A stretch of DNA of 64,000 bases, taken from IMG/VR virus record IMGVR_UViG_3300031772_000024, positions 3,888-67,887 of that record; one strand, given 5' to 3'. The notes beneath the pieces are model-generated. The model made no database searches, was not told the DNA's origin, and saw only the letters and a list, made by a program, of their open reading frames with translations. Shown in pieces: positions 6,109-63,104 of this stretch; the first letter of the stretch is position 1; every line of letters starts with the position of its first letter. This DNA is from a virus. The translations under genes and the position numbers were made by a program.

Positions 6109-6116
6109 CGGTGTAA
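6109..6116 (+). promoter_or_regulatory. CGGTGTAA putative phage promoter element (first of ~18 copies)
   Basis: 10 nt upstream of ATG 6126; the same motif and spacing recur across the window (see findings). Confidence 0.7.
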
Positions 6117-6125
6117 CGACGCGGG

Positions 6126-6620
6126 ATGGGCCTCGATATCTCAAGCCATGTGGTTCTGGGCGTTCGCGTCGCGAGGCGCGAACTGATTCAACAGACCGTT
6201 CTCCCCTTGCAGTGCGCAAAAGGCCACCCCCGCCCGTCCGCGGAGATGGCCTTTTGCCCGCAGGACGGGACATCCTTCGCAGAACGGACCGTTGAAGGCC
6301 CGACGCCCCCGGTGGCGGCCTACTTGGCTGCCCGGGGCTTTGAGGAGCATGGGGTCGAGGCACTCTACGATGTCTGGCAAGGGAGCGAGTTTGGAGTGCG
6401 CCCGATCAACACGATCCAGCCGGTTCGTGGGCCGGATGTGGAGTACGCGTTCGGGGTCTGCCTTGCCAAGACGCAAAGCCACCGTTCAAACGCGAACCCG
6501 TACACGACGACCCTGACGGGCATTGAAGAGGCAACGGCAAGGGTGCTTGCGGAGGCGGCCTTGCTGGGCCTCGAAGGGCGCCCCGCGGAGCTATTTCTCT
6601 GCGTTTACTTCTCTGCGTGA
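6126..6620 (+). CDS. Hypothetical protein with C-x2-H...C-P-x-D-G metal-binding motif
   Basis: ORF behind a GGTGTA motif; CAKGH...FCPQDG. Confidence 0.65.
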   Translation: MGLDISSHVVLGVRVARRELIQQTVLPLQCAKGHPRPSAEMAFCPQDGTSFAERTVEGPTPPVAAYLAARGFEEHGVEALYDVWQGSEFGVRPINTIQPVRGPDVEYAFGVCLAKTQSHRSNANPYTTTLTGIEEATARVLAEAALLGLEGRPAELFLCVYFSA

Positions 6621-6627
6621 GGATCTC

Positions 6628-6963
6628 GTGTCTGGACCCACGACCCTGAAAGAGCTTGCAACGCAGCATCAAGTGCCTGAGTGCCCGCTGTGCAAGCGCC
6701 CGAACCTACGACCCTCGGATCATCATGTGATCCCTCGATGTCGCGGTGGAGAGGAGACTCTCAGCATCTGTTCGAGCTGTCATGGCGCGATCCATAAGAC
6801 ATTCACGAACAAGGAGCTTGAGAGACAGTACAACACGGTCGAGGCTCTCATGGCGCATGAAGGCTTCGTGAAGATCATCCGTTTCATTGCCAAGCAAGAC
6901 CCCGGGGGGCGGGTGAGGACCGAGCTGGCTCGAAGCCAGCGGCGCCGAGGTAGGAATGGGTGA
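6628..6963 (+). CDS. Small HNH-family protein (YisB-like)
   Basis: CPLC..DHHVIPRCRGG...ICSSCHGAIH..FTNKEL. Confidence 0.8.
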   Translation: MSGPTTLKELATQHQVPECPLCKRPNLRPSDHHVIPRCRGGEETLSICSSCHGAIHKTFTNKELERQYNTVEALMAHEGFVKIIRFIAKQDPGGRVRTELARSQRRRGRNG

Positions 6964-7190
6964 TGGAACGATACGGGCTTTACGATGTGGAATCTGGTTG
7001 CCGTTTGCGTGATGCAACGGCGGACGAGTACCGCCAGTACAAGCAGGCGACGGGTGGGTATTACACGATGAAGTACGGTCTATGCGACGTGCGGCGCGAG
7101 GTGGTACCCCCGCCGATCCCTGATCCTTCCGATGCGATTCCCAGGTTTGTGTGGTTCGATTCGATACCACCGCCAGGGAAGAAGCCATGA
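6963..7190 (+). CDS. Hypothetical protein
   Basis: TGATG coupling to the upstream gene; internal YGLYDV/YGLCDV repeat. Confidence 0.5.
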   Translation: MERYGLYDVESGCRLRDATADEYRQYKQATGGYYTMKYGLCDVRREVVPPPIPDPSDAIPRFVWFDSIPPPGKKP

Positions 7191-7420
7191 TCGACGTTCG
7201 GTTCGTCATCGACCTGGAAGTGCTCTTGACGAAGGCCATGTCCGCGCTGCCGCAGCGCGGCGACTTCATCGTCTTGCACAAAGAGACGACAGAGACGCAG
7301 TACAGAGTGCAGGCCGTCTCTTGGTACTTTGGGCCGGATAGCAAGCTCCGCGGCGGAGGTGACTTCGTTGAGGTAGGGCTGAAGCCCGCGAAGTTAGTAC
7401 GGAAAAAGCGGGTCGCCTAG
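7187..7420 (+). CDS. Hypothetical protein
   Basis: ATGA overlap with the previous stop; LPQRGDFI motif. Confidence 0.55.
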   Translation: MIDVRFVIDLEVLLTKAMSALPQRGDFIVLHKETTETQYRVQAVSWYFGPDSKLRGGGDFVEVGLKPAKLVRKKRVA

Positions 7421-7462
7421 CCGTTATCCACCTTTGCTGGCACTCTGAAAGGAGGCCAGCAA

Positions 7463-7804: not shown

Positions 7805-8468
7805 TCGGCTTCGCGGCGACTACAGGCGCCGTGGAGTGTGCCCGGTGCTCGTTCCAGTTGTCCGTGTAGGACTTGGCCATATCGCGCTGGTCTCGGATGA
7901 AGAGGCAGTTCTCGGCGTTGGACTTCTCGGCGGCGTTGGTGAAGTTGAACGACCCTGTCTCGACGCTGGCCCCGTCCACGATGATGACCTTGTCGTGGGC
8001 GATGGCGTGCTTGCTATCGATGAAGGTCGAGACGTCCCCGTCTTGCAACGTCTTCAACTGAGAGGACCTCGCGGTGACGTTGCTCTTGTCGAGAAGGACC
8101 ACCACGTCCACGCCTCGCTCGCGGGCCTTCACCAAGGCACCGGCGATGGGCACGGACGTGAAGCTGTAGGCCTGGACCCGGACGCTCTTCTTCGCTGACC
8201 CGATGAAATCCTCGACACCCTCGGTGCAGTCGCCTTTGGGGGAGAACCGCACGTCCATCACGGGGGCGGGGGCGCAGAGGGTCTCGGGGCCTTTGGCCGC
8301 AACCTTGTTGCGTAGCTCGGGATCCGGCTTCATCTGCGGGCGGGGTGGGGACGGGTCTTCGGGGGGCGCCTCCATCTTAGGCTTCGCAGCCATGGGGGCT
8401 GGGTGCGAAGGGGGGCTTCCACATGCCGTGACGAGCAGGAGAGCGACCGCGAGGATTCGATGGTTCAT
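7785..8468 (-). CDS. Phospholipase D/Nuc-family protein with lipoprotein signal peptide
   Basis: Single HxKxxxxD (HDKVIIVD), GSFNFT and NAEN motifs, FSPKG; N-terminal LLVTAC lipobox followed by a Pro-rich linker. Confidence 0.88.
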   Translation of the reverse strand: MNHRILAVALLLVTACGSPPSHPAPMAAKPKMEAPPEDPSPPRPQMKPDPELRNKVAAKGPETLCAPAPVMDVRFSPKGDCTEGVEDFIGSAKKSVRVQAYSFTSVPIAGALVKARERGVDVVVLLDKSNVTARSSQLKTLQDGDVSTFIDSKHAIAHDKVIIVDGASVETGSFNFTNAAEKSNAENCLFIRDQRDMAKSYTDNWNEHRAHSTAPVVAAKPTKPPHP

Positions 8469-8586
8469 TTTCCACCTTCAGTCGTTCACAAGTAGCTTGA
8501 CGAAAGTCAGATTCCACATTCTATACTGCTAATTGACCGCGCGCGAGGTGGATGGCCTCGACCAACAGGTCTCGGAGGAGCCATCC

Positions 8587-10035: not shown

Positions 10036-10077
10036 CGAACCTCACAACGCTCAAAAACGGGGTGTATCTTGAAAAGG

Positions 10078-10638: not shown

Positions 10639-10671
10639 GCCCAGCGCTTGTTTCTATCGCCCACACTTGGT

Positions 10672-13600
10672 GTGGACCGCCTTGGGACCAAAGACACGTA
10701 CGAGAGCCAGGAGAGCGAGGCCGAGCGCCTTGTGCGCCCTGCTCCTAAACTGAAGCCCTCGCGTCGTGATAAGCGGCGTGAACTGGTGAAGGAGAAGGAC
10801 GAGGATCTCGACGGCGATGACGGGGACGACAAGGATCTCACCCTCAACAAGAAGTACATTGGGGGGAGCGACACTTCGCGCGTCGTCGCGTACCGCTTCT
10901 TTATCCGCACGGCCAAGGATCGGATCAAGGTCATTCGGAAGGAGGACGGCAAGACCGTCCTCGTGTCCGAGAAGACGCTCAAGGAGAAGCCCTCGGAGTA
11001 CGAGGTCCCCGAAGAGGGGCTCGAAGATGCTCCGCCCGGCGTCGGCCCCCTCGTCGCCGAGAGAGCGCGCAAGCTCCTCCAGAAGGCGGAGAAGGACGAC
11101 CGCATCAAGTCCTACCTCAAGGACATCGCGAACCCTGAGCGCCTAGGGCAGGTCCCAGGGAAGAAGGAACTCCCGAAGCCCGTTGCCGATGTGCTCGGAC
11201 TGAAGTCCTTCGGTGAGGCTCGCGACATCGCCAAGGCGATGGGCGCCGTCCAGGACTGGGACAAGGCGCAAGACAAGGAAAAGGGTAAGGGCAAGGGTAA
11301 GGGCAAGAAGATACCGCGGGACGAAGAGCCCGAGGAGCCTGCGAAGCCGGCAGCAAAGGCTCCCAAGGTCGAGCAGCCTGAGGGAGCGGAAGAGCAGCCC
11401 AAGGCCAAAGCACCCCCTGCAAAGGAGCCCGAGGAGGAGAGCCCGAAGGAGGCCCCCGAGGGCGAGGCGCCGAAGAAGGAGAAGTCCAAGGGTAAAAAGC
11501 CCTCGAAGCCCAAGGTCGACACCGACGAGGTCGATAAGGGCTGGGACTCCGCGGAGGAAGCTGCTCCTCGGACGCAGTTCCTCAACGAGCACGAGGAGGA
11601 TTTCCACGACTTCCTTCGGGCGTTGCCCACGGGGTCAGAGGGCGACGGCGGACAGCCGCTCGTCCTCGACGACCACACGAAGAAGCTCGTCACCTTCGAC
11701 CAGGTGTCGCCCGCGCAGGCGAAGAGGGTTTTCGAGCGCTTCAAGGCGAACATCGACGCACAGACGAACGCCAAGGCGCTGCGGGATGCGCTCCCGAACG
11801 ATCGTCTGCGGCATGATCTCTACAAGGCATTCGTCGAAGGGGACAAGAAGAACCCTTTCTCCAAGGCCATTGCAGAAGCCACCACGAAGACCAGAGACCT
11901 CGGTGAGCAGTTCAACGAAGAGGACGCGCGCATCGACCGCGTCCTCCCCCAACTGAAGGGCAAGCTCCCCAAAGGTATCGAGACGCTGGCACAGCTTCGC
12001 GCGGCGGTGAACGGGGACAAGTCCCTCTTCGAGATGGACAAGGACCGAACGGCTTTACGTGAGGACATTGCCAAGCAGCAGAGCGATGAGGGCGTCAAAG
12101 CTCTCCTTCAGGACTTGTCGAACCCCTCCTCGAACGCAGCGGCGGCGCTCAAGGACAGGAAGCTCGATGATCCGGTCGTATCGAAGGACCCCGAGGGCAA
12201 GGAGATCAATGCCTTCCCGGGCTTAAAGCTCCCCGAGGGCACGACGATCGGCGACGTGGTCGAGGCCGCCAAGAAGCTGCACCCCGAGATCAAGCCGCTA
12301 AAGCGACGCCCCTTCACCAAGAAGGATGTCGCTGCCGAGTACCATCGCATCTTCAGTGTCACACCGTCCTACAAGATGGACCCCGAGACCCTCGCGGCGC
12401 TCGCCTCGTTCGAGGAGCTGCACCCTGATGATATCGGCCCAGCCTACGAAGCCTTCCTGAATGCCAAGAGTGCCAAGGGGACGCTATCGGACGATCTCTC
12501 GGTCGGGTCGAAGTTCTACGAGACGGACCCCGCCAAGGTCCGCCCGCCTGCGAAGTGGGTAGTGAAGGGGAAGGAAGTCCCGTTCGAGAAGCTCTCCCCG
12601 GAGCAACAGTCCCACGCGATGGCGGAGCATCGCGTCCAGACCGTGGCTTTGAGCCATGCAATGCGCGCGCGTGCAAGCACGACCCTGAAGAAGATGGGCG
12701 CGCCGGAGGGGCTCGTGTCCGCCGTCACGCCCAGGTTGTTCGCCAACCCCAAGACGACGGATTGGGACGCGGTGAAGTTGGAGGCGGATACCAGGTTCCG
12801 CACGGCCTTGGAAGAACCCCAAGAGCGGATGCCGGACGTCAAGATGCGGAAGCTCTTGGACACCCTCAAGGATGCACCCGCCGCGAGGCGTCTTGCGGTA
12901 TCGCAGCTTCAAGCGGCCGACTACCAGAAGGCCCTTGCCGATATCGACAAGGAGAGCTTGGACGAGCACACCAGCTCCCCGGACGATATTGCCAAAACAA
13001 TAGCTCGGGTGTGTGAGGACGTACGTGGCAGGTCCAAGGATTACGGACCGGATGCCCTCCAGGATACCCCCATGCTCGTCCGAGGGCGGGTCTTAGAGAA
13101 GCTTGACGCGGTGAACCCGGAGAAGGCAGCGCAGGTCCGGGAAGCCCTCAAAAGCCACCTGGAAGACGACCATTCGCAGGCGATGAAGCAGTACGAGGCG
13201 ATGAAGGCCCAGCACGAGAAGTCGAGCAACCCGTACCGCTCGGCCCCCCTGCCGGACGAGCCGCGCCCGCCTATTGGGTCAGGCAGCACGGCTTCGGGGA
13301 CCACGATGATGAACGAGTTCCGCAAGCGACTTGCAGGCAAATCCTTTTATCCGAAGGGTCGTTCGATGGAGTCCATCAACAAAGCTGCGATCTACCATGG
13401 CGTCGAGCCCTACCCGGCTGGGCATGAGGGCTTCGCCCCCTCTCAGGGGTGGACACAGGCGCAACAGCGCGACCTCGGCGAGAAGGACTTCGAAGGTATC
13501 GTGGCCTCGGCCAAGAAATGGCTGAAGACCCCATTCCTATCGGCCTCCGTCGAAGGGCTGCCTACAAGGGACATTGCTCGGGCAGCCCTCGACCTGGCCC

Positions 13601-14151
13601 TCAAGACGTTCGGGGGAGGGCGCTACGACGCATCACTATCGCCCCCAGCCTACGAGGTTGTCCTGAGCCGTATTGCTGGACGCGCAGGAACCGCAAGTTC
13701 CTCAACTTCTCCTTATGGGAGTACGACGTTCGAGGAGATCGCACACATGAAGGCCGCCACGCAGATCCGTTCCTACGCCGCGAAGATCGCTTCCACGCAT
13801 CCGGAAATCGCCTACGACCTGATCGATCTCTCCACCAAGCTCGCAGCGGAGGAGAAGGACGAGAAGGAGCAGGCGGACAAGAAGGACGACAAGAAGGACG
13901 ACAAGAAGGATGACAAGGGAGGCAAGCCGGCCTTCCCGGGCGCTGCTCCGCCCTTCGGTAAGAAGGATGCTCAGGATCAGGGTCAGCAGGATCAGGGTCA
14001 GCAGGATCAGGGTCAGAAGGGTCAGGAGCAGCAAAAGCAGGCTTCCGCGTACAACACCCTTCGCGCAGCCGTCATCCGCACGGCGGCCACGAACCCGGCT
14101 CTTCGTCAGTATTTCTACCCCGTGCTTCAGGTCATCAAGCAACTCGGGTGA
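10672..14151 (+). CDS. Large charged putative inner-head/virion protein, with probable in-frame internal starts at 13366 and 13747
   Basis: K/E/P-rich; lies directly upstream of the head module; TTTCTAT motif 14 nt upstream; many [KR]xA(A/S) motifs. Confidence 0.7.
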   Translation: MDRLGTKDTYESQESEAERLVRPAPKLKPSRRDKRRELVKEKDEDLDGDDGDDKDLTLNKKYIGGSDTSRVVAYRFFIRTAKDRIKVIRKEDGKTVLVSEKTLKEKPSEYEVPEEGLEDAPPGVGPLVAERARKLLQKAEKDDRIKSYLKDIANPERLGQVPGKKELPKPVADVLGLKSFGEARDIAKAMGAVQDWDKAQDKEKGKGKGKGKKIPRDEEPEEPAKPAAKAPKVEQPEGAEEQPKAKAPPAKEPEEESPKEAPEGEAPKKEKSKGKKPSKPKVDTDEVDKGWDSAEEAAPRTQFLNEHEEDFHDFLRALPTGSEGDGGQPLVLDDHTKKLVTFDQVSPAQAKRVFERFKANIDAQTNAKALRDALPNDRLRHDLYKAFVEGDKKNPFSKAIAEATTKTRDLGEQFNEEDARIDRVLPQLKGKLPKGIETLAQLRAAVNGDKSLFEMDKDRTALREDIAKQQSDEGVKALLQDLSNPSSNAAAALKDRKLDDPVVSKDPEGKEINAFPGLKLPEGTTIGDVVEAAKKLHPEIKPLKRRPFTKKDVAAEYHRIFSVTPSYKMDPETLAALASFEELHPDDIGPAYEAFLNAKSAKGTLSDDLSVGSKFYETDPAKVRPPAKWVVKGKEVPFEKLSPEQQSHAMAEHRVQTVALSHAMRARASTTLKKMGAPEGLVSAVTPRLFANPKTTDWDAVKLEADTRFRTALEEPQERMPDVKMRKLLDTLKDAPAARRLAVSQLQAADYQKALADIDKESLDEHTSSPDDIAKTIARVCEDVRGRSKDYGPDALQDTPMLVRGRVLEKLDAVNPEKAAQVREALKSHLEDDHSQAMKQYEAMKAQHEKSSNPYRSAPLPDEPRPPIGSGSTASGTTMMNEFRKRLAGKSFYPKGRSMESINKAAIYHGVEPYPAGHEGFAPSQGWTQAQQRDLGEKDFEGIVASAKKWLKTPFLSASVEGLPTRDIARAALDLALKTFGGGRYDASLSPPAYEVVLSRIAGRAGTASSSTSPYGSTTFEEIAHMKAATQIRSYAAKIASTHPEIAYDLIDLSTKLAAEEKDEKEQADKKDDKKDDKKDDKGGKPAFPGAAPPFGKKDAQDQGQQDQGQQDQGQKGQEQQKQASAYNTLRAAVIRTAATNPALRQYFYPVLQVIKQLG
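13876..14020 (+). repeat. Coding tandem repeats (12-nt DKKD x3; 15-nt QDQGQ x3)
   Basis: GACAAGAAGGAC and CAGGATCAGGGTCAG units are visible. Confidence 0.75.
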
Positions 14152-14203
14152 GACATACCTGTCTCTGATCCCACAGGCACAACACTAAGCCCAGGAGACG
14201 ACG

Positions 14204-14593
14204 ATGAAGTTCAAGTTTGCGGCCGAAGAGGCCAACCGGACGCTTTCCCGTCTGGACAAGTTGGCGGCGGACATCCAGGCGAACTACAAGGCGTGGGGTA
14301 TGCCTTTCGAGGACGCCCGCAACTTCGTGAACGCCCTCGACAAGACAGCAGACGAGGTCGAAGTCGCGTCCTTCGGCGAGAAGTCGTTCGAAGAGCGCCA
14401 GGCCGAGACCATCACGAAGATGGCGAAGGTCATCGGACGTGACGCCGACGAGTCGTACATGGATACGTTCAACTCGCCCACCAGGCCGTTGCAGACGGAC
14501 GGAGACGAGCCGTACATGAAGGCTTACGCCGACGATCAGTCCATGGCCGTTCAGTCGGGCAAGTCCACGACGGGCCGTCCTCTCGCTCCCTGA
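14204..14593 (+). CDS. Putative head/prohead core protein
   Basis: AGGAG SD; internal repeat DADESYMDTF / DGDEPYMKAY; head-module position. Confidence 0.65.
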   Translation: MKFKFAAEEANRTLSRLDKLAADIQANYKAWGMPFEDARNFVNALDKTADEVEVASFGEKSFEERQAETITKMAKVIGRDADESYMDTFNSPTRPLQTDGDEPYMKAYADDQSMAVQSGKSTTGRPLAP

Positions 14594-14598
14594 ACTGT

Positions 14599-14623
14599 CC
14601 TCTCAACTGTTCTTGTTGAGAGG
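14599..14623. terminator. Perfect 9-bp hairpin between head genes
   Basis: CCTCTCAAC-TGTTCTT-GTTGAGAGG; no strong U-tract. Confidence 0.45.
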
Positions 14624-14649
14624 TACCCCCGCTCGACAGTGGAGGTAAC

Positions 14650-15366
14650 GTGGGGACCGACTATCAGGCGTTGGCGAGGGACTTCAAGATCGGAGACGTT
14701 GTCCACAGGGCGTTCCCCACGTGGGTCGCAATGTCTCCGTTCGTAGGCCGTATCACGTCAGTGTTCCCAGGCATTGGGTGCTGTGACGTGCAGTGGCCCT
14801 ACGGAAACGAGCGCGTCCCGGTGGATGAGATCGTTCGATCAAATCCGGGCTTCCTGCCCTACCTCCCTCCGACACTCGATCAGTCGTTTCAGACGCTCGA
14901 AGTGTTGAAGGCTAGGCAGGCAGCGACTTCGGTTTGGCGCACGACGAGCCTCCCGCAAGGCTTTCATCTCGACATGGCGAGGCTCTGGGCACGGCAGGCG
15001 TCGGAGGTTGCGGCCTACGACGAGCTTTGGCGCCGCTATGCCAACGTCGCAGCGGACGACGCGATTCGTGACGAGGTCGACAAGTTCTACACGGTCGGGC
15101 GCAACCTCCCGATCGTGCTCATCCAGGCTGCCGCCCGGACGAAGTCCGCGGCTTACTGGGTTGCACAGAACCGTCAGTACCGCGCGACGAAGGAAGAGTT
15201 CTCGGCGCGTAAGCCTGGCTGCCCTCGGTGTTCGACCACCATGCGGCGGACGACCTACAAGATGAAGGAAGGCGCGAAGCATCGGCTATTCGGCTGCCCT
15301 CGATGCCTCTTCCTCATCAAAACCAACGACCTGTTGGCCCCTGACGGCGCTGCCGTCGAGTGGTGA
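14650..15366 (+). CDS. Head-module protein with SH3-like N-terminus and C-terminal zinc ribbon
   Basis: FKIGDVV...GRITSV..CDVQWPYG; CPRC...CPRC; GGAGG SD. Confidence 0.7.
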   Translation: MGTDYQALARDFKIGDVVHRAFPTWVAMSPFVGRITSVFPGIGCCDVQWPYGNERVPVDEIVRSNPGFLPYLPPTLDQSFQTLEVLKARQAATSVWRTTSLPQGFHLDMARLWARQASEVAAYDELWRRYANVAADDAIRDEVDKFYTVGRNLPIVLIQAAARTKSAAYWVAQNRQYRATKEEFSARKPGCPRCSTTMRRTTYKMKEGAKHRLFGCPRCLFLIKTNDLLAPDGAAVEW

Positions 15367-15376
15367 GGAGAACGGG

Positions 15377-15583
15377 ATGGCATTCGTAAAGCACGGGGCT
15401 GCTGTGCCCGCGAAGATGGTCGATATGGCATCCCTGATCAACTCGATCGGTCCTGGGTCCCGGGTGAAGCTCGGGGCCAGGGCGGGGACGGTCAGTAGCG
15501 TGTCGGGCACGAAGGCGTCGCTTGTCTTCGATGAGGACCAGGCCGAAGTCGAGGCGTCTCTGTCCTCGCTGACAAGGATCTGA
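15377..15583 (+). CDS. Small SH3/KOW-like protein
   Basis: IGPGSRVKL...GTV; GAGGAG SD; MAFVK start resembles the next gene's MAFLK. Confidence 0.55.
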   Translation: MAFVKHGAAVPAKMVDMASLINSIGPGSRVKLGARAGTVSSVSGTKASLVFDEDQAEVEASLSSLTRI

Positions 15584-15584
15584 G

Positions 15585-18500
15585 ATGGCGTTCCTCAAGT
15601 TCGCAAACGCAAAGGTATCACACTCGGACGTGACGTTCTCCGGGTGGGAGGACTTGCACGCGAAGAGTGGACACAAGTCGAAGCAGGCGTCCTCGAAGGT
15701 TGTATTCAAGGACTACGATCCGAAGGACTACCTCCTCACGCACTGCTCGATCGTCGCCTCTGTCGATACGGAGGACGGCCCCGGCCCTCTAGGCAAGCAC
15801 CTGGTGGATGGCTTCCAGGTCGATCGCCAGTTCTCGGACTACTACGTCACGAGCAACACGATCCCCTGGGTCAACAACAACAACGATGCGTTCGAGCGAA
15901 GGATTCTCCTCGCGACGTACCGCACGTTCGTGGGTTCGTACAACTACGTCGAGCACCTTCAGATCCCGGCCCTCTCGAAGGGCAAGATCATCGACGCAGC
16001 GGCCAGGGACATCGGCGACTCGATCTACGTAGACATCCTGGTCGCTACAGAGCGCAAGCACCGTCCCCTCATCGCGGCCATAACGAGCGGTCAGCTTCAG
16101 ACGCTCAGCATGGGCTGCTCAGTGTCCTATACGACCTGCACCAAGTGCGGCAACGTCGCGCTCGACGAGTCCCAGCTATGCGCGCACATTCGGTACTTCA
16201 AGGGCAGCGAGTTCTACGACGACTTCGGCAAGAAGCGGAAGATCGCCGAGCTTTGCTTCCCGGCGGGTACACGGATAACAAGTGGGGATGGGCGCCCTGT
16301 CGCAATTGACGACCTCCAGATTGGTGACTCTGTATTCACGCACTTAGGTCGCCGCCGGGAGGTTACTGAAAAGTTTGAACGTCACTACGAAGGAGACGTT
16401 GTTACACTCTCGGTCGTTGGCCACCCGTATACGACCTTCAAGTCTACCCCTGGGCATCCTTATTATGTATTGAGCCCTCGTGATACCTGTGCTTGCGGGT
16501 GTGGTGCCTCTCTCACTACAAGGAAGACTTTCTCACACCAAGAGTATCTCCGATCCTATGCCCCTGGGCATAACCCCACGGTTCAGGGCATTCATACGCT
16601 AAAGCCACAGGCTTTCAATTTTAGGGATGCCAAGGATATTAGGGTCGGTGATCAACTTCTCCTGCCCATCCCTACCGAGGTTCGACAACCAGTCGATGTG
16701 GATACGGATCGAGCCTACCTTCTAGGTTGGTTCCTCGCAGAGGGTAGTTTTGAGAAAGTGCAGGGGAAACATACGAAAGTGTGTTTTACCCTCAATGCGG
16801 AAGATGAGAAAGAGGTCGCAACAACAATATCGAACCTTCTTGCCAAGTGCTTCCCCCCTGAGACTCCGCATCGTCGTCTGTCTAGTACCCCTGGTAAGTC
16901 GCTGATCCGTCAAGGCATCGAGTCCCTGACAAATATCACGGATAAGATCCTAAAGGCTTTAGCGGCTGGAGAGGTTCTGTCTTCTGATGTGAGGGGTGCC
17001 ACCAAGGAAACTATCAGCGTTATTCTCAATAGGTACAAGGCTAAGGGTCTGGTCAGTTCTAGGCCCTTGCGTGCAGGAGAGCGTGCTGAGATCCGCGGAC
17101 GTGCCCGTTCGAGGGCTTGTGTCTGGACGTGGGTAGGAAACGAAGCACCTGTATCACTTCTCAGTGATCGACAAGGTAAAGACCATTGGCGGACACACCC
17201 CCTTGCAAACGAAACAGAGATGATGCCTCGCATTTATCTCTACCCTCGTTTGGAAGGTGGTGAGAAACTGACGGTCGTTTACCGGAACGACCGCGCCGCA
17301 GCATGGTTCCTAAACCACGCGGGGGAATACGCTGGGAGCAAGCATCTATCCAGTGACGCAGTCCTATGGCCTAAACCGTTGCAAACCGAGTTACTAAGAG
17401 GCTACTTCCACGGGGACGGTAGTGCTGATAAGTTCGGTCGGCATAGTGTGTCGTCCGTGTCTGACGCGCTCATCACCCAGATGCAGTTGGTTGCGACACG
17501 CTGTGGTTTCTGGACTAGACGCCAGATCATCTTCGAGGGGAAGGCCACCTCCATCGAAGCCATGGTTGCGAATGGTGAACCTCTCGTCGTTGGGTATGAT
17601 GGATGTCGGCCCCGGCATGAACTGCATTTGCAACCTTCGAATGAAGCCACCGAGACATTTGCATTCGAGAAGGCCACTTCTCATGTAAGGGGGCTCGAAC
17701 CTAAGTGGCGTCAACATGACGGTTACCTTCTATACAGGGTAAGTCGTGTTGGCCTCGAACACTTCTCAGGCCCTGTCTACAATATATCTGTCGATGAGGA
17801 CGAGTCCTATCTAGTCAACGGGCTCGCAGTTCATAACTGCGGGCACCACTCGGATCCCGAGAGCGTCAAGTTCATCGAGGCATCGTGGGTTGCCAACCCT
17901 GCCTTCCGTGGCGCCGTCCTGCGAAGCATCCTCTCGCAGGAGGAGACCGAGAAGGTTGCGGGGCTGATCCATTCCGGACTCAATGCCTCCGGCCCTCAGA
18001 TCGATCACACGCTCGTGCAGAAGGCGGCCAGTGCAGCGGCCTTCAGCGTCGCTTCCGCGGAGTGGTCCCGTAAGGGCGAAGGCCAGTTCGACTTCGGCGA
18101 CCTCGGCGGGCAGGGCGGCGGCGGGCAGGGCGGCGGTGACTCCAAGAAGGACGACACCAAGAAGGACGACCCGCTCGAAAAGCTCGTCGGTGATCTCGCG
18201 GACAACATCCGTGAGCGTGCCCTGAAGAAGATCCGCGAGGAGATGGGCAAGGACGAGGCGAAGAAGGTCGACAACCTCGACCTCAACTCTCAGAACGAGA
18301 GCCTCATCAAGTCTGCCATGGCCTACCCGGCTTGGCGTGGGATTGCCCGGTCTGTCCTCAAGATCGCAGGTTCCCCGAAGGCAGCACGTCAGATTCTTCT
18401 TGGCCTCATGCTTCACCGCACCGGTGGTTGGCAGGCCGTGGAGAAGGCAAAACTCTCTGGCCATGAGATCCTGGCCGTATCGAGGATCTTGGATCTTGCC

Positions 18501-18689
18501 ATGCGCAAGACCGCAATGGCCGGTGAGGGTCGTCTCTACAGGACTGTAGTTGCGAGCAGAGGGGTTCGGTCTCATCCCTCGGAAACCAAGTACCTGGATA
18601 CCTGTCGTCAGGCCATGGGAAGGGACATCACGGACCATGAGAAAAGGTTCCTGATCGCAAAGGGACGACTATTCTCGATGGGTTTGTGA
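15585..18689 (+). CDS. Prohead (capsid maturation) serine protease, intein-containing
   Basis: NNNNDAF, YVEH (His), KGKIIDA, LSMGC (Ser), CTKCGN..CAH, EASWVANPAF; position upstream of scaffold and MCP. Confidence 0.8.
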   Translation: MAFLKFANAKVSHSDVTFSGWEDLHAKSGHKSKQASSKVVFKDYDPKDYLLTHCSIVASVDTEDGPGPLGKHLVDGFQVDRQFSDYYVTSNTIPWVNNNNDAFERRILLATYRTFVGSYNYVEHLQIPALSKGKIIDAAARDIGDSIYVDILVATERKHRPLIAAITSGQLQTLSMGCSVSYTTCTKCGNVALDESQLCAHIRYFKGSEFYDDFGKKRKIAELCFPAGTRITSGDGRPVAIDDLQIGDSVFTHLGRRREVTEKFERHYEGDVVTLSVVGHPYTTFKSTPGHPYYVLSPRDTCACGCGASLTTRKTFSHQEYLRSYAPGHNPTVQGIHTLKPQAFNFRDAKDIRVGDQLLLPIPTEVRQPVDVDTDRAYLLGWFLAEGSFEKVQGKHTKVCFTLNAEDEKEVATTISNLLAKCFPPETPHRRLSSTPGKSLIRQGIESLTNITDKILKALAAGEVLSSDVRGATKETISVILNRYKAKGLVSSRPLRAGERAEIRGRARSRACVWTWVGNEAPVSLLSDRQGKDHWRTHPLANETEMMPRIYLYPRLEGGEKLTVVYRNDRAAAWFLNHAGEYAGSKHLSSDAVLWPKPLQTELLRGYFHGDGSADKFGRHSVSSVSDALITQMQLVATRCGFWTRRQIIFEGKATSIEAMVANGEPLVVGYDGCRPRHELHLQPSNEATETFAFEKATSHVRGLEPKWRQHDGYLLYRVSRVGLEHFSGPVYNISVDEDESYLVNGLAVHNCGHHSDPESVKFIEASWVANPAFRGAVLRSILSQEETEKVAGLIHSGLNASGPQIDHTLVQKAASAAAFSVASAEWSRKGEGQFDFGDLGGQGGGGQGGGDSKKDDTKKDDPLEKLVGDLADNIRERALKKIREEMGKDEAKKVDNLDLNSQNESLIKSAMAYPAWRGIARSVLKIAGSPKAARQILLGLMLHRTGGWQAVEKAKLSGHEILAVSRILDLAMRKTAMAGEGRLYRTVVASRGVRSHPSETKYLDTCRQAMGRDITDHEKRFLIAKGRLFSMGL
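16254..17837 (+). mobile_element. Full-size intein with LAGLIDADG endonuclease (528 aa)
   Basis: CFPAGT start, block B STPGHPY, LGWFLAEGS and LRGYFHGDG motifs, VYNISV...AVHN|C end; visibly lower GC than the extein. Confidence 0.92.
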
Positions 18690-18735
18690 CGATTGTTTCT
18701 ATAACGATTCAGATGCGAGGAAAGGACCCCGGAAA

Positions 18736-20034: not shown

Positions 20035-20143
20035 AGTTCCGGAGAGGGCGTCCTAGTGGCCCCCTCTCCAAAAACCAACGCCTGGATTGGCGCCGAGATC
20101 GAATGTGTATTGGTAAGCACCCCAGCATTTAAGGAGACTGAAC

Positions 20144-20776: not shown

Positions 20777-20821
20777 CCTAGCCCGTAACCAGGTAACCCA
20801 AGAAAGCAAAGGGCAAAAGTC

Positions 20822-21897: not shown

Positions 21898-22848
21898 GTG
21901 CGCGCCATCCCTTGCCCCATCTCTCCGAAGGAACTTCGTCGCCTCTACGTGACTCGGAAGCTGACGGACGAAGAGATCGTTGCCCGCCTCGGGGAGGGCG
22001 CGACGTTGAAGAGGGTCCGGTCCTGGCGAAAGCGGTTAGGCATCGAGACCATCTCCCCGCTCGACCGTCACAAGGTGACGCCAGTTGAAGGGAAGCTGCG
22101 GTCGCTTCTCGTTGGCTCGATGCTCGGTGATGGCCGACTTCATCGGACGCCGAACGGGGCACGCTTCATGGAGAACCACGCCGACGACCAGCGCGAGTAC
22201 ATCGCGTGGAAGGTCAAGCAGTGGGGTCCGTGGGTGAAGGGCGGCTTGAACCCCGTGACGTGGACGAACGACGGAGGCACGTTCCAGGGCTGGCGGTTCC
22301 ACACGGTCTGCCATCCGTCACTCATCGAGTGGCACGCACGCTTCTACGACGAGACGGGACCCAAGCGCCTTTCACGCGAGGTCATCGACTACGTGGACGA
22401 CTTCGCCCTTGCCGTTTGGTTCATGGACGATGGCTCCGTTGGTTGGTGGCCGCGCATCACGTTCGGCATGGACGACGTGAGCCAAGCCATGGCTCTCGCG
22501 ATTTTTGAGCGCTTCGGTTTCGCGCCTCGGTGGCAGATCCACAAGGAGCGGACGGGCGACTTCATCTTCGAGGGCGAAGATCAGGCGGAGCGCTTCCTCG
22601 CGCTCGTGAAGCCGCACATGCCGAAGACGATGGAGCGGAAGCTCACACACGGCTTTCAAGGCCCGCACTACCAAATGCGCAAGGCATTGACGCCCGAGGC
22701 GCTCCGAGAGTTAGCCTCGAAGGGGGTGCCCATTCGGCGCATGGCTGTCATGCTCGGGCAGACCCCGAGTAGCGTCAACCGCTTCCTTAAGCACTTCGGC
22801 ATCGAGCACCCGCGTAAGGTTGGGCGTCCGCTGCGCAATGCGGTGTAG
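21898..22848 (+). mobile_element. Free-standing LAGLIDADG homing endonuclease with terminal HTH segments
   Basis: LVGSMLGDG and ALAVWFMDDG motifs; HTH-like N- and C-termini. Confidence 0.88.
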
Positions 22849-23971: not shown

Positions 23972-23998
23972 TCCACCTTTCGGAAGCGCACTCTCAGG

Positions 23999-24376: not shown

Positions 24377-24402
24377 TTCACCTTTCGGGAGCCGGACTCA
24401 AG

Positions 24403-25502: not shown

Positions 25503-25523
25503 GCCCTGGTGTAAGACGGGGCG

Positions 25524-26351: not shown

Positions 26352-26372
26352 TTACGGTGTAGAAGCGGCCCC

Positions 26373-27038: not shown

Positions 27039-27039
27039 A

Positions 27040-27351: not shown

Positions 27352-27424
27352 ACCCGTCAGGGATGCGACTTTCTCCCGTACGAACCCCGCGCCTGCCGGC
27401 ATCGTTGCGGTGTAGAGAGACCCC

Positions 27425-28003: not shown

Positions 28004-28005
28004 GA

Positions 28006-29692: not shown

Positions 29693-29789
29693 GGTCCGCC
29701 TCTCGGACTACACCATGCAGGTTTGGTGTGACTCGCGTCCTCGAAGAAGTGCTCCGGCCGAAAGCTGCCTAGTGGGGTAGGGGTAGCCC

Positions 29790-30302: not shown

Positions 30303-30319
30303 CGGTGTATTGAACCCTC

Positions 30320-30931: not shown

Positions 30932-30959
30932 CACGGGCCCCTCGGTGTAACGACCCCCT

Positions 30960-31532: not shown

Positions 31533-31692
31533 CATGCCCCGTGAAGCCCTTCGGCGTCGCCCTCTGACCACATGTCTGCGCAACGGCATTGAGGCACTGA
31601 GGACTTGCTGGTTCTTGGTCAAGAAGTCCTGGGTGGAGCGTGAAACTGCCCGCTGGCGCTACTAGCTAGTGTCCTTGTCGGAACCCTCCACT

Positions 31693-32166: not shown

Positions 32167-32263
32167 GTGACCGGTCGCAGGGCTGAAAAAGGTCGTTGCG
32201 GCAGCGGTCAGCTTTTTAACCCTGAAAATCCGTCGCTAGACTTCCTATCCGGCGGGGAAGGTG

Positions 32264-34215: not shown

Positions 34216-34252
34216 CGGCCAAGTTGGTGCCTCGGTGTAGGGGCACCAGCAC

Positions 34253-36004: not shown

Positions 36005-36100
36005 TCTCTTGGACGCCAGTCACGTTCCGCCACCGTGGAAGGCATCGAAGGGCGACGCGCATGATGTTTCAGGTGTACGACCCCAGGCAGGGAGCGTGAC

Positions 36101-43719: not shown

Positions 43720-43755
43720 GACGTCGGTGTAAGTATCCGGCCAAGGAGCGACGAG

Positions 43756-47799: not shown

Positions 47800-48034
47800 A
47801 GTCATCCGCAAGCGGGTCGTCGAGATCGTGGGCAGGCTTGGCAAGCCTGCCCTGATCGGCCTAGTCGCAACGGAGCTGGGGTGGTGGGCAGCGTTGCCCA
47901 CCACTGAAGCCATCCTCGACGAGCTAGTGGAAAGCAAAGCCCTTCGGCGTTTGACCCCAGTCGAAGAGAGACACTGGCGTATGAAGCACGCCTACGTCCA
48001 GGCCGGTGTAGAGGATGCCACAAAGATGGGCTGA
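47777..48034 (+). CDS. Hypothetical protein, winged-helix-like
   Basis: GLVATELG...TEAILDELVESKALRR. Confidence 0.5.
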   Translation: MDPKPSPEVIRKRVVEIVGRLGKPALIGLVATELGWWAALPTTEAILDELVESKALRRLTPVEERHWRMKHAYVQAGVEDATKMG

Positions 48035-48051: not shown

Positions 48052-48789
48052 ATGGGCAAGCGACTCAGGTTCCTCACGGACGTAGATGAGGTACTAGGGG
48101 ACTTTCAGATACCTGCGTTACGGATCATGGAGCGCATCACGGGGCGTAGATACACCCCCGAGTCGTTCACGGAATGGGACATGTTCTCGCTCGTGTCGGA
48201 CGAGGAGAAGCGCGCTGTCTTCGCCGAGATCGAGAAGCCTGGCTGGTGCCAGAACGTCCAGCCGTTGCCCGGTGCAATTGACTTCATCAAGGAGGTTCGG
48301 AAGCACTGCGATGTCTTCGTGGTGACCTCGCCCTTCCACAGCAACACGTGGGTGGCCGAACGCTATGCCTGGCTGGCGAAGCACTTCGACTTCAAGTCGT
48401 CGGAGGTCGTGCACACGAGCGCGAAGCACCTCGTCGTGGGCGACGTGTTCCTCGACGACAACCCGAGCAACATCGATAAGTGGTGCGCCGCACACCCTGG
48501 CAAACTCGGGATGCTTTGGCACATCCCAAACACCCGGCTCATGCCGTACGACCACGTCCGTGTCCGGTCGTGGGAGGAAGCCTTGAAGCGGACACTGGAC
48601 TTCCAGGAGAGGCCCTCGGTTTACGACCTGCTTCGGAAGGCCGAGTGGCACGTTCAAGAAGACAGGGATGGTGTCAGCTACAACTGCTTCGAGTGCGGGG
48701 GGTCTGCATTTGCAGCCATGCACAAGCCTGGGTGCCAGGTCGATGCGATCTTGAACGCGGTGTATGGGCCCGCGCGGAGGCTCCCATGA
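48052..48789 (+). CDS. 5'(3')-deoxyribonucleotidase (HAD, NT5C family) with C-terminal Zn module
   Basis: DVDEVLGDF, PLPGA, VTSP, K...GDVFLDDNP; tail CFECGG...HKPGC. Confidence 0.88.
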   Translation: MGKRLRFLTDVDEVLGDFQIPALRIMERITGRRYTPESFTEWDMFSLVSDEEKRAVFAEIEKPGWCQNVQPLPGAIDFIKEVRKHCDVFVVTSPFHSNTWVAERYAWLAKHFDFKSSEVVHTSAKHLVVGDVFLDDNPSNIDKWCAAHPGKLGMLWHIPNTRLMPYDHVRVRSWEEALKRTLDFQERPSVYDLLRKAEWHVQEDRDGVSYNCFECGGSAFAAMHKPGCQVDAILNAVYGPARRLP

Positions 48790-50502: not shown

Positions 50503-50534
50503 TCCTCCGGTGTAGAGGGAGGGTGGAGGTAAAA

Positions 50535-54589: not shown

Positions 54590-54624
54590 ATTGGAGACGC
54601 TACACCGCCATGGTGTATCCTTAC

Positions 54625-56242: not shown

Positions 56243-56346
56243 GTGAACCTCCAACGAGAGGCCCTGCACTCGTGGTTTAGCGATCGTTGAAGAAGGTTTC
56301 TATTTTCCGGGGTTCCGTCAGATCGCCGCGGTGTAACGGAGGGGAC

Positions 56347-60727: not shown

Positions 60728-60765
60728 TGACTTCCCCTTACACCGCTCCGGAGTAGTATGGCGGT

Positions 60766-61146
60766 GTGCTTCCCCATGGGTGGACAGTGATCGATGCTTG
60801 GGCGCAGGCGCATATGTCTACGCTCGTGCTCACCGTTCCAGCACTGGCACTGCTCTTCGGAGCCCTAGGGGTCGTCGGTTGGTGCCGGCTGAGCGTTCGC
60901 CTCGATCGGACCGACAGACGGATCAACGAAGTCGAGGGCCTCTCAACGAGGACCCAGAACTCGGCCAGGAACGTCCTCGGTAGAACGAGGGCGCTAGAGG
61001 AACGTCTTGCGTCTGCCGCGCCGCCCGCGAGCCCAGATGAAGGACCCGCCCCAGAGAAGCGCAAGAAACGGATACGCCGAAAGCAAGGCCCTGTCAACTC
61101 GAACGCCTACACGAAGCTGTTCGACGAGGAGAAGGACAGTGAGTGA
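60766..61146 (+). CDS. Single-pass membrane protein
   Basis: Hydrophobic LVLTVPALALLFGALGVVGW; coiled coil; ends NAYTKLFDEE; start uncertain. Confidence 0.55.
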   Translation: MLPHGWTVIDAWAQAHMSTLVLTVPALALLFGALGVVGWCRLSVRLDRTDRRINEVEGLSTRTQNSARNVLGRTRALEERLASAAPPASPDEGPAPEKRKKRIRRKQGPVNSNAYTKLFDEEKDSE

Positions 61147-61405
61147 GGAGAACATCGACGCGGCTGTCCTTGAGGATCAGGCTGCCTACCAGCGCGTTCT
61201 ACAGACTCTCATGATCCGACTCGGGGAGGCCGACCTCCACTGCGAGCAAGCACGGATCGCCGCCGCCATGGATGGCGCTTCAGATCGAGATCACTTCGCA
61301 GCGGATCTCGCAACGCGAAACCTTGAGGTCCAGTGCCACAAGGTGATCGAGTTTGCCCGCACCATGGCGCTCAATGAGCGGGCTAAAGGCCCGTCTGAAG
61401 AGTGA
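61139..61405 (+). CDS. Hypothetical protein
   Basis: GTG start overlapping the previous stop; AAGGA SD. Confidence 0.5.
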   Translation: MSEENIDAAVLEDQAAYQRVLQTLMIRLGEADLHCEQARIAAAMDGASDRDHFAADLATRNLEVQCHKVIEFARTMALNERAKGPSEE

Positions 61406-61901
61406 TGAAGAAGTTGTTCTGAGCGGTCGGGGGCTGCATCACATTCGCGTTGAAGTAGCCGTTGCTTCCGCGCGGGTCCCCCGAGAGGGCCCACTCGTCC
61501 TCCTTCGTCCAGAGGCCGCGTAGCGAGAAGACAAGGCGCTCACCAGATGCGTACGTCAGCGGGACGAGAGGCCCCGCCTGCCTCGATGCGTAGGTGTAGC
61601 GCTCGAATATTCGGGTCGAGATGATCCAGTTCCCCGTGCCCATCACGGCGTGTCCCACGGCGGGCTGCTGCCCGATGATGCTCGTGTACTTGTCAGCGTC
61701 CTCGTCCGAGCCCCAGAGGAGAAAGCCTCCATATAGACCGGTGGACCGGCCCACCTGGAACTCATCCAGCGGGGAATCGACCCACGATACACCCTGCCCC
61801 CCGCTCCAGCCCGAGGCACGAAGAGCGGCATCGAGAGTGACGGCATAGGCGTCGCCCTTGTAGAAGATGATCACGTCCCGCGTGCGGAGTATCTCGGCCA
61901 T
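61383..61901 (-). CDS. Paralog of the capsid decoration protein
   Basis: PLTYASGERLVFSLRGLWT vs ALTYSSGDLVYASVNGLLT in 20144; similar C-terminus; TTCTAT motif upstream. Confidence 0.65.
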   Translation of the reverse strand: MAEILRTRDVIIFYKGDAYAVTLDAALRASGWSGGQGVSWVDSPLDEFQVGRSTGLYGGFLLWGSDEDADKYTSIIGQQPAVGHAVMGTGNWIISTRIFERYTYASRQAGPLVPLTYASGERLVFSLRGLWTKEDEWALSGDPRGSNGYFNANVMQPPTAQNNFFITLQTGL

Positions 61902-61927
61902 CTACGAGTGGCCCAGGCATAGAAGCA

Positions 61928-62338
61928 CTAGACGCTGGGCTTCACGTTCCCGATGGTGACGTGAAAGGGAGTGCCCGCGTCAGGAGACTCCGTCACCCAA
62001 CTCGTTCGCGGGAGGCCAAGCTCCTGACGGATCTCTTCGAGCCCCGGTGCGTAGGCACCAAGCCAGTAGTACGTGTGATCGAAGTACACGTATCCATGAT
62101 ACTGAAAGTCCACGAGCTTACCTTCGTGGCAGCCCCACGCTGACAGGTTCGGGGGCACCTCTCGACGAACGACTGTCATGTGTGGCGCGTACTTCTGCCG
62201 GTTGAGCCTCACAGCACGAGGCACGAGGGCTCGATAGACATCGACGATCCCCATGTCGACCTCGGCCACGAGCCGGTACTCGGTGTTCGTGGTGCTGTAG
62301 CGAAGGATAGCTACAGCCGAGAACAGTGGCGCGGTCAT
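61928..62338 (-). CDS. Small 2H phosphoesterase
   Basis: APHMTVVR and PFHVTIG (two HxT motifs); LEEIRQELGL; ATGA coupling. Confidence 0.75.
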   Translation of the reverse strand: MTAPLFSAVAILRYSTTNTEYRLVAEVDMGIVDVYRALVPRAVRLNRQKYAPHMTVVRREVPPNLSAWGCHEGKLVDFQYHGYVYFDHTYYWLGAYAPGLEEIRQELGLPRTSWVTESPDAGTPFHVTIGNVKPSV

Positions 62339-62784
62339 CGCAGGAGTCGGTCTTTGATCCAGGCTGGGATGGGATCCGTATGGCTGAAGCCTGCGGACAT
62401 CCACCGGTCAGGTTCAGATAGCTGCAAGACCTGATGCCCTGTCAGCATCTTCTGAAAGCACGTGACCATGATCTTGATCGCCCCTGCCTTGCTTTCTTCC
62501 GGGCGAGCGCGCAGGCGGCTGAACATCTCAGTGGCTTCTGTCCTTATCGCTTCCAGCACTTGCGAACGTCCGGACTTCGGATGCAGCAAGTACGTTCCGC
62601 GGAAGGAGGATTCCTTGAACGGTCGCTCCTCCCAGGGAACGGTGGACAAAAGGCTGATCAGTAGCACGGCACGGAAATGATCGCGATCCCCAAGGCTAGC
62701 CGAAAACCCGCGGTATTCCGGGAACTTAGCATAGAGCCTCGCAGCTTGCTTTGGAGGTTCCCCCCCGAAGTAAAAGGTGTGCAT
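62335..62784 (-). CDS. Hypothetical protein (start uncertain)
   Basis: 3' part of the 62335-63057 ORF; stop overlaps the 2H gene start. Confidence 0.45.
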   Translation of the reverse strand: MHTFYFGGEPPKQAARLYAKFPEYRGFSASLGDRDHFRAVLLISLLSTVPWEERPFKESSFRGTYLLHPKSGRSQVLEAIRTEATEMFSRLRARPEESKAGAIKIMVTCFQKMLTGHQVLQLSEPDRWMSAGFSHTDPIPAWIKDRLLR

Positions 62785-63104
62785 CTGGTTCAACCTGTGC
62801 TCATCGAGTTCAAGGCCCACGGGAATGAGCACTACACCACCGCGCGAAAGAAGACACCCGAGGCATGTTGGGTCTGATCCTCGCTCGGTGTATGAGGGGT
62901 GTCCGCCTGGCCGATTTTCTTGCCAGCGTACCGCGGACTCCGATATGAAAGCACCCTTCCCCAATCTTGGCTTGGGGAGGGCGACCCCCGAAGAGAACTT
63001 GTTCTCCTCAGGGTTGTTTTCTGAGCCCCGGCGGGCAGTTGACGCTTGGGACCCCACCGGCCTCTAGGTACCAAGAGGCTGGTGAAAACCAGGAGGTACA
63101 TCTC

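Follow-up and report, generated by a model that had tools for sequence, protein, structure and literature searches.

The short element (C/T)GGTGTA recurs 10–11 nucleotides (nt) upstream of start codons in a 64,000-nt stretch of viral DNA (hereafter the window; bases 3888–67887 of the 67,887-bp IMG/VR record IMGVR_UViG_3300031772_000024, G000 below), and it is probably a single-box promoter of giant phages related to Bacillus phage G, giving mRNAs that have no leader or almost none. The window has a GC content of 61.6%, and CheckV puts the completeness of the record at 14%. The identity of its major head protein is 83% with that of LR745208.1 (an uncultured phage of 485 kb), 47% with that of Tunturiibacter phage Tunturi 5 (309 kb) and 37.5% with that of phage G; by these values, the window is to be read as a piece of the genome of a giant, uncultured relative of phage G. 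Its genes were called from codon usage, blind to the motif, which gave 81 crude calls, and families were assigned by Pfam and PHROG searches.

GGTGTA occurs 30 times in the window, against 10.57 ± 3.44 times in shuffled sequences, none of the 100 shuffles reaching 30, and CGGTGTA occurs 16 times against 3.68 ± 1.81. Counting the distance d between box and start codon, an ATG or GTG (RTG) was found at d = 10 or 11 after 12 of the 30 copies, with about 0.9 expected per distance (binomial P = 5 × 10^-8), and seven control hexamers reached 0–3 at d = 8–13. Ranked by enrichment over the 40-nt regions preceding the 81 called genes, GGTGTA was also first among hexamers (17 regions, 0.66 expected, P = 1.4 × 10^-18), an enrichment over background that had been anticipated in an earlier note on this DNA. 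The box is always oriented toward the gene. When it ends in TAA or TAG and stands at d = 10, this triplet, as read from the sequence, stops the frame four codons ahead of the ATG, and the open reading frame therefore cannot start further upstream. Eleven of the 30 copies lie inside genes or remote from any start. In the first de novo scan of the 64-kb window, which considered any RTG at a single distance, coding noise was dominant and GGTGTA ranked only 24th–25th, because its signal is divided between d = 10 and d = 11.

The sites are listed below, the box-proximal ones first and then those at which a Shine-Dalgarno (SD) sequence lies between box and start. The coordinates and spacings of GGTGTA given in the earlier note were all re-read and are right; the sites at 48758–48764 and 54612–54617 come in addition.

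6109..6115, plus strand: CGGTGTA, 10 nt before ATG 6126 of a 164-aa protein of no family; the TAA in the box closes the reading frame 12 nt before the ATG.
10061..10066, plus strand: GGTGTA preceded by G, 11 nt before GTG 10078 of a phosphoribosyltransferase-like gene.
22841..22847, plus strand: CGGTGTA, 11 nt before ATG 22859 and overlapping the stop codon (TAG) of the LAGLIDADG endonuclease gene 21898–22848.
25507..25513, plus strand: TGGTGTA, 10 nt before ATG 25524 of a 275-aa protein.
26355..26361, plus strand: CGGTGTA, 11 nt before ATG 26373 (uracil-DNA glycosylase superfamily).
27408..27414, plus strand: CGGTGTA, 10 nt before ATG 27425 (SpoU methylase).
30303..30309, plus strand: CGGTGTA, 10 nt before GTG 30320 (dephospho-CoA kinase).
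30943..30949, plus strand: CGGTGTA, 10 nt before ATG 30960; kept at the ortholog in the related contig G001 (11 nt), where the flanks differ.
34233..34239, plus strand: CGGTGTA, 13 nt before ATG 34253 (SNF2 helicase); kept at the orthologs in G001 (12 nt) and in the related genome G002.
54601..54607, minus strand: CGGTGTA, 11 nt before ATG 54589; one half of the back-to-back pair TACACC-gccat-GGTGTA.
54612..54617, plus strand: GGTGTA, 7 nt before ATG 54625, which is in frame with ATG 54610; the other half of this divergent pair.
56329..56335, plus strand: CGGTGTA, 11 nt before ATG 56347; kept at the G001 ortholog (11 nt).
60739..60745, minus strand: CGGTGTA, 11 nt before ATG 60727 (RlaP-like nucleotidyltransferase).
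On the opposite strand, 5 nt from the box at 60739..60745: GGAGTA, 10 nt before GTG 60766.
29709..29714, minus strand: GGTGTA, 16 nt before ATG 29692, with GAGAGG between (leadered use).
36072..36077, plus strand: GGTGTA, 23 nt before ATG 36101, with GGGAG between.
43725..43731, plus strand: CGGTGTA, 24 nt before ATG 43756, with AAGGAG between; kept in G001 (23 nt in the ortholog alignment, 21 nt by a count based on GTGTA).
48004..48010, plus strand: CGGTGTA, 41 nt before ATG 48052 (5'-nucleotidase), with GGAGG between; absent at the G001 ortholog.
48758..48764, plus strand: CGGTGTA within the 3' end of gene 48052–48789, 21 nt before ATG 48786 (thymidylate synthase, thyA), with GGAGG between.
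50508..50514, plus strand: CGGTGTA, 20 nt before ATG 50535 (dihydrofolate reductase), with GGAGG between; alternatively, GTG 50523 follows at 8 nt.

For the reading frame that starts at 22859, the motif-blind gene caller chose 22997 in the same frame. Two further boxes, at 62833–62838 on the minus strand and 62886–62892 on the plus strand, face outward 48 nt apart, neither with a convincing start at 9–13 nt.

The same box was found in relatives of the window phage. The 46-kb contig G001 has genes of 66–79% nucleotide identity to the window, and G002 (529 kb), G010 (448 kb) and G012 (407 kb) are complete or near-complete genomes, whose genes were called with the same script as those of the window. 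In each of them GGTGTA is again the top upstream hexamer, with 7 of 44 regions in G001 (0.34 expected), 112 of 703 in G002 (7.7 expected, P = 5 × 10^-87), 92 of 592 in G010 (6.2 expected) and 55 of 455 in G012 (4.9 expected). The box is kept while its flanks have diverged at the G001 orthologs of the genes starting at 30960, 34253, 43756 and 56347, and also at the SNF2 gene of G002; a GTGTA core is kept at two more G001 orthologs, and the box is lost at one, the ortholog of 48052. The 332 copies of GGTGTA in G002 are followed by RTG at d = 9, 10, 11 and 12 in 29, 66, 45 and 26 cases, respectively, over a background of 3–17 and with the mode at d = 10. Of these copies, 128 stand 9–13 nt before a start codon in the frame of a called gene (ATG in 108, GTG in 20), 86 of which agree with the independently called start, and 215 of the 332 are intergenic or at gene ends, the median for 59 hexamers of the same composition being 40. 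Altogether, 65 of 455, 100 of 592 and 141 of 703 called genes carry the box, that is, 14–20% of the genes in phages of 400–530 kb.

More distant members of the group have different boxes in the same layout. In LR745208.1, GTGTAA lies 7–8 nt before starts and a two-box class CTAAAAA...CCGATAGGG is also present, and the boxes of Tunturi 5, AATCACC...GGGTATTA and TCATCTTT...GTAGGTTGA, each stand 6–7 nt before ATG, or 16–31 nt before it with an SD between. An apparent signal in LR745208.1, TAAAAA 11 nt before RTG, was discarded as an artefact, the RTG being part of the second box in CTAAAAA-N-cgtgCCGATAGGG.

The genes downstream of the box are non-structural, as had been stated in the earlier note for the window. 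The head block of the window contains a prohead-protease-like protein with an intein (15585–18686) and the major head protein (20822–21721), and no copy of GGTGTA was found in this head-gene block (10672–21724). On its 3' side runs a long series of non-structural genes encoding uracil-DNA glycosylase, SpoU, CoaE, CYTH, translation initiation factor 1 (IF-1), the SNF2 helicase, DnaB with an intein and primase; PolA, an AAA ATPase with an intein, NT5C, ThyA and dihydrofolate reductase; and a nitrilase-type hydrolase, an M15 endolysin, LigT and RlaP. The Pfam scan of G002 covered 122 box-proximal genes, taking proteins of up to 450 aa that lay clear of the 20-kb fetch borders. All 36 genes with a Pfam match were non-structural, none belonging to a head or tail family, and their families included methyltransferases, RNase HII, ArgRS, ATCase, the SNF2 ortholog and adenosine deaminase. 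Around the capsid gene of G002, box sites are absent from 220–280 kb and rare at 340–420 kb.

The anatomy of the box was analyzed in 29 aligned sites of the window phage and G001 and in 128 aligned sites of G002. Information is limited to Y-GGTGTA and a weak R or S behind it (Y-GGTGTA-S in the G002 sites), and no −35 box was found in either set, consistent with the earlier note. No TATAAT-like hexamer follows the box in the G002 logo, so that the box does not follow the extended −10 pattern of sigma-70 (TG at −15/−14, then a TATAAT-like hexamer; TGnTATAAT), which it resembles only in dispensing with a −35 box, and at the sixth position of a TANNNT element the 128 sites have T at a frequency of 0.16 and G at 0.49, T being present once among 12 window sites. 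The box is strict: at d = 9–12 in G002, the consensus was counted 86 times with 0.88 expected, and the 18 single-mismatch variants, taken together, 23 times with about 10.6 expected. This bare enrichment gives no support to the one-mismatch variants that had been proposed as further members. One of these, GTGGTA at d = 10 before the ATG of infA (33171), differs from the box at two positions, and GGAGTA before 57545, the start codon of which is TTG, is indeed present 12 nt upstream but belongs to the same unsupported class.

A hairpin was noticed upstream of the SNF2 gene (34215–34252), where the box lies in the loop; its stem is GGTGCC/GGCACC in the window and CCTTC/GAAGG in G001 (L036, about 8240–8290). 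This stem thus persists despite a changed sequence but is not general to the box: stems of at least 5 bp surround 2.3% of 173 sites in G002, the same 2.3% as in a swapped-flank control, and the hairpin was rejected as a general feature.

The presence of an SD depends on the distance of the box. Genes of G000 and G001 were classed by the distance of the GTGTA core, and the SD was scored by a 4-mer test. Only 3 of the 18 box-proximal genes (core 8–13 nt upstream) had an SD, against 14% at random positions, whereas it was present in 9 of the 11 box-distal genes (core 14–44 nt upstream; Fisher P = 0.0013) and in 36 of the 96 remaining genes. The remark of the earlier note that box-proximal starts mostly have no SD is thus borne out. 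A test based on duplex energy was dropped in favor of the 4-mer test, since GGTG of the box itself pairs with CACC and confounds the result.

Divergent genes share a back-to-back layout. In the window, the genes starting at 54589 on the minus strand and at 54610 or 54625 on the plus strand are separated by TACACC-gccat-GGTGTA. The arrangement TACACC-N1-13-GGTGTA accounts for 19 divergent pairs in G002, against 0 convergent and 1 tandem, and in 14 of the 19 the starts lie 7–13 nt out on either side. The spacers of these pairs are about 35–45 bp long, and the two boxes are their sole conserved content.

A second class of sites in G002 suggests where transcripts may begin. It comprises 48 sites of the form GATGGATCG-N-tGTAGt, with the fuller consensus cgGATGGATCg-N-CtCgCg(c/t)tGTAGt(a/g)GGgaCATG; ATGGAT lies 28–29 nt before the start, and GTA is followed by exactly 8 nt and the start codon in 45 of the 48 sites. 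This geometry would be that of a −35/−10 promoter firing on the A of the ATG, with tGTAGt at −12 to −7 and this A at +1. In such a register, the single-box class would consist of CGG, at the extended −10 position, and TGTA, and the predicted leaders would be 1–3 nt long in the window and 0–1 nt in G010 and LR745208.1. Modal spacings are 10–11 nt in the window, 10 in G002, 9 in G010, 9–10 in G012 and 7–8 after GTGTAA in LR745208.1. A −10-like signal about 12 nt before the start is described as a mark of leaderless genes in one report (PMC3160421), and its validation in Deinococcus is described in another (PMC12340547). The TA of GGTGTA, which lies 11–13 nt before the start in 12 of the 30 window copies, fits this rule by position; by sequence it does not, the last T of TANNNT being missing. 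As a separate observation, the two-box sites of G002 (L143–L169; GATGGATCG-N-tGTAGtgGGGaCATG), with their rigid spacing, are concentrated at 420–529 kb, a region of small genes.

Taken together, the orientation of the box, its conservation at orthologs, the back-to-back layout and a spacing that would leave little or no leader are promoter-like, and this part of the proposal made in the earlier note has indirect support; the phage RNA polymerase offered there as a possible reader is not supported (see below). We suggest that host core RNA polymerase binds the single box without −35 contact, by means of a specificity factor that the phage encodes or modifies. DNA would be opened just 3' of the box and RNA would begin about 8–10 nt past its final A. 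A start codon 9–13 nt after the box would then leave no leader or one of 1–4 nt, translated as a leaderless message without SD; with the message starting at or just before the AUG, a ribosome-binding site would therefore not be needed by these genes. For a gene 16–41 nt from the box, a short leader would carry a normal SD. This class would serve replication, nucleotide metabolism and accessory genes, which are probably expressed before the late genes, an early/middle timing suggested by gene content. Promoter activity, start site, translation route, reading factor and timing are all deduced from DNA sequence.

Other explanations were considered. The box could act in the mRNA, GGUGUA about 10 nt before the AUG of genes in long operons recruiting the ribosome or a phage factor in place of an SD. 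The fixed spacing to the start codon and the missing SD would agree with such a role, as would the many sites in very short gaps between co-directional genes, the IF-1 encoded by the phage and a possible pairing of GGUG with CACC of the 16S 3' tail, at about −5.5 kcal/mol in a duplex calculation. However, the box also stands 16–41 nt upstream of six window genes with a normal SD in between, where a role of the ribosome at fixed distance fails, and GGUG 12–13 nt before the AUG is generally too distant for pairing of the SD type. In addition, the divergent spacers of 35–45 bp must house two promoters, yet only the two boxes are conserved in them, and the GTA core recurs in the sister class of G002 together with a −35-like box at promoter distance. 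We thus regard a translation signal as unlikely. A regulator site, that is, an operator over unrecognised promoters, or an RNA-processing signal that trims polycistronic RNA to leaderless messages, would account for a short, strict and strand-specific box with fixed spacing, and for intragenic copies that are not depleted. Both are nevertheless very unlikely in our view: no second conserved promoter element accompanies the box, the divergent spacers are too small for separate promoters, and the two-box sister class points to polymerase contacts; moreover, a single asymmetric 7-mer would be unusual as an operator.

The box could also be the promoter of an RNA polymerase of the phage itself, encoded outside the present fragment of its genome. 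The strictness of the box, with variants near background, is typical of phage polymerases, the box is rare in candidate host genomes, the record holds only about 14% of the genome, and two large window proteins, of 1420 and 1159 aa, match no family. Against this, the beta-prime domain PF00623 was matched in none of the five relatives searched (G002, G010, G012, G013 and LR745208.1), while the positive control matched 14 of 14 genomes. The comparison of motif use covered four of the five, G002, G010 and G012 carrying GGTGTA and LR745208.1 GTGTAA. The motif D-x-DGD was present in none of the 703 called G002 proteins, and a search for T7-type polymerases (PF00940) was empty, but its control also matched nowhere. 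A comparative survey describes jumbo phages of the phage G group as encoding neither RNA polymerase nor sigma factor (PMC7824862). A polymerase of the phage itself as reader is therefore highly improbable.

For the single-box promoter that we favor, the specificity factor was sought among the proteins of the relatives. G002, G010, G012 and LR745208.1 have 86 proteins in common, and among the 56 of these that were scanned, under the same limits of size and fetch borders as above, the sole transcription-related one is a protein of about 215 aa (about 200 aa in LR745208.1) with a sigma region-4 domain, encoded at 71524–72171 in G002. The G002 protein is 64%, 64%, 58% and 38% identical to its counterparts in G010, G012, G013 and LR745208.1, respectively. 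In its AlphaFold2 model (predicted local distance difference test score, 71.5), only residues 48–113 match sigma region-4 domains (Z about 10), and we consider the protein a candidate reading factor, not an assignment. In LR745208.1, its gene (419.7–420.9 kb, L059) lies directly 3' of an open reading frame with a KOW (NusG-like) motif, and a paralog is found at 153.9 kb. Sigma70_r2 was above the cut-off solely in gp211 of Tunturi 5, and tblastn with this protein found nothing in G000, G001 or LR745208.1. Relatives of gp36, the sigma factor of phage phiEco32, had no match in G000, G001, G002, G010 or G012 in a search without positive control, and an hhalign comparison of gp36 with the region-4 protein of the clade gave a probability of 0.35%.

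A lead to the host comes from the phage IF-1 (33171–33431), which has an N-terminal extension and finds its best matches among IF-1 proteins of Myxococcota (Polyangia), with 71–73% identity over residues 9–86; it is possibly also a lead to leaderless translation. Three Myxococcota genomes picked by this match served as candidate hosts. CGGTGTA-N10-11-ATG occurs 118 times per Mb in G000 and 102 in G002 but only 1.8–3.3 times in the three genomes, a rarity that suggests a specificity brought by the phage.

Several points weigh against the single-box promoter or the details proposed for it. The choice of host genomes rests on one gene, that of IF-1. The window holds no reading factor, no sigma or polymerase gene having been found in it by family searches, and the fold of the only clade-wide sigma-like protein, region 4, reads −35 and not −10 elements in sigma factors. 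The box has no T at the end of TANNNT and so is no standard −10 element, and sigma-70 rules cannot place its start site; the spacing modes also vary among relatives, and not all mRNAs can therefore start exactly on the A. About 117 of the 332 copies in G002 are intragenic (48 sense and 69 antisense), with no clear depletion, so that six or seven bases may not suffice or spurious starts may be tolerated. Among first genes after a strand switch in G002, 40 of 156 have the box, compared with 90 of 546 others (P = 0.014), a modest difference obtained with noisy gene calls. Finally, the 12 runs listed for window positions 25000–34999 are all sediment-metagenome DNA and none is RNA.

Among known systems, the late promoters of phage T4, TATAAATA, depend on gp55, gp33 and the gp45 clamp and drive structural genes through leadered mRNAs. 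Like the present box, they are single and strict, have no −35 element, are conserved over a very divergent phage group and often occur in many copies per genome; they differ in sequence (TATAAATA vs GGTGTA), and the structural block here has no box. phiYS40, a large Thermus phage without a polymerase of its own, reportedly makes transcripts that are mostly leaderless, from middle and late promoters in which a single extended −10-like element is present. These promoters are said to resemble the extended −10 promoters of host sigma-A and to be transcribed by the host holoenzyme in vitro; the box described here, on the other hand, is unlike a standard −10 element.

The closest parallel is phiEco32. 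Its middle and late promoters have AATGTA centred at −11.5, the −12T and −11G of which are read by the phage sigma factor gp36, with gp79 (PMC12276001). In phiEco32 a single strict box in the −10 region carries the specificity, as the present box would, and the TGTA core is common (AATGTA vs GGTGTA). The A of the phiEco32 box lies at −9, which fits the two-box register of G002 (GTA, 8 nt and ATG), from the spacing of which the position here is deduced, and host core polymerase, used by phiEco32, would be used by this clade as well. The two differ in the first three bases of the box; moreover, over 100 genes per genome in this clade have the box right before the start codon, and the word 'leaderless' does not occur in the phiEco32 report (PMC12276001). 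In Deinococcus-Thermus and Actinobacteria, a TANNNT −10 motif adjacent to open reading frames is described as giving leaderless mRNAs (PMC12340547, PMC3160421). Common to that class and ours are a lone −10-like element near the start, with T about 12 nt upstream and no SD, and other genes that are led by an SD. The present box differs in being GGTGTA without the sixth-position T, in having all six bases nearly invariant and in belonging to a phage clade, and it is rare in the candidate hosts. The giant phages phiKZ and AR9 likewise have short phage-specific promoter motifs, but they have multisubunit polymerases of their own, for which the relatives of this phage show no gene, and long 5' untranslated regions: phiKZ is reported to have no leaderless transcripts, and 5' untranslated regions of 26–491 nt are given for AR9 (PMC8244752, PMC5312081).

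Literature searches found no description of the motif or of such a layout in giant phages, and the full-text matches to GGTGTA were primer sequences only. The leaderless single-box layout would be the first of its kind proposed for giant phages, the two jumbo models studied, phiKZ and AR9, having long leaders. If the proposal is true, seven bp would switch on 14–20% of the genes in phages of 400–530 kb, translated without a ribosome-binding site, and the question is raised of how a −10-region box is read that does not have the bases flipped out by a standard sigma factor. A wider reading, that of a private expression channel in a widespread clade, appears doubtful though conceivable: an unrecognized factor other than a standard sigma, conserved throughout the clade, would steer host polymerase to the 7-bp promoter of more than 100 leaderless mRNAs per genome, with the phage IF-1, among others, tilting ribosomes away from the SD-led mRNAs of the host. 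The breadth of the clade in this reading is that of capsid-gene relatives in 581 IMG/VR stretches. Start-codon calls in these genomes could also be corrected with the help of the box, and the promoter could be tested in a cultured relative, Tunturi 5 on Tunturiibacter, with its own boxes. Together with its cognate factor, a promoter so minimal, strict and orthogonal would also be of use in synthetic biology.

IMG/VR contains 581 relatives of the head gene. Across the 80 of these that were compared, the head protein is 91–98% identical, and many lie on contigs of 230–530 kb. PolA, on the other hand, was found in 12 of 19 large contigs with only 48–59% identity. GC contents range from 56 to 64%, and the capsid gene is thus unusually frozen for so divergent a clade. 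Megablast of 20 kb of the window against GenBank phages gave no match.

Other candidate signals were noticed in the window. Upstream of the structural genes starting at 10672 and 18736 stands the word TTCT(T)AT, in the form gtTTCTAT in the window and tTCTTATc in G001 and G002 (window sites 10650–10671, 18690–18735 and 8515–8532). It is enriched upstream of genes in three genomes, for example with 4 cases vs 0.19 in the window, and has minus-strand sites at 130–404 kb in G002; it is a candidate late-promoter box. At 8490–8532, just 5' of a TTG start at 8533, lies a sigma-70-like pair TTGACG...TATACT (gap of 19 nt, or TTCTAT at 16), possibly an early promoter of the host type. A repeat, TAGT(C/T)CACCTTTCGG (CCACCTTTG in the third copy), occurs at 23965–23998, 24370–24402 and 7425–7462, each time behind the stop codon of the preceding gene and about 20 nt ahead of the following ATG.

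The window also contains three genes interrupted by inteins, namely the prohead-protease-like gene at 15585–18686 (Hint and LAGLIDADG), the DnaB helicase gene at 37009–39000 and the AAA ATPase gene at 44330–46396, and two free-standing homing endonuclease genes, GIY-YIG at 91–807 and LAGLIDADG at 21898–22848. In G002, a Volactin-family (actin-like) protein belongs to the clade core (L161:2464–3474), and a 796-aa protein with a Cas12f1/TnpB-like domain (L168:1849–4236) has a GGTGTA box before it.

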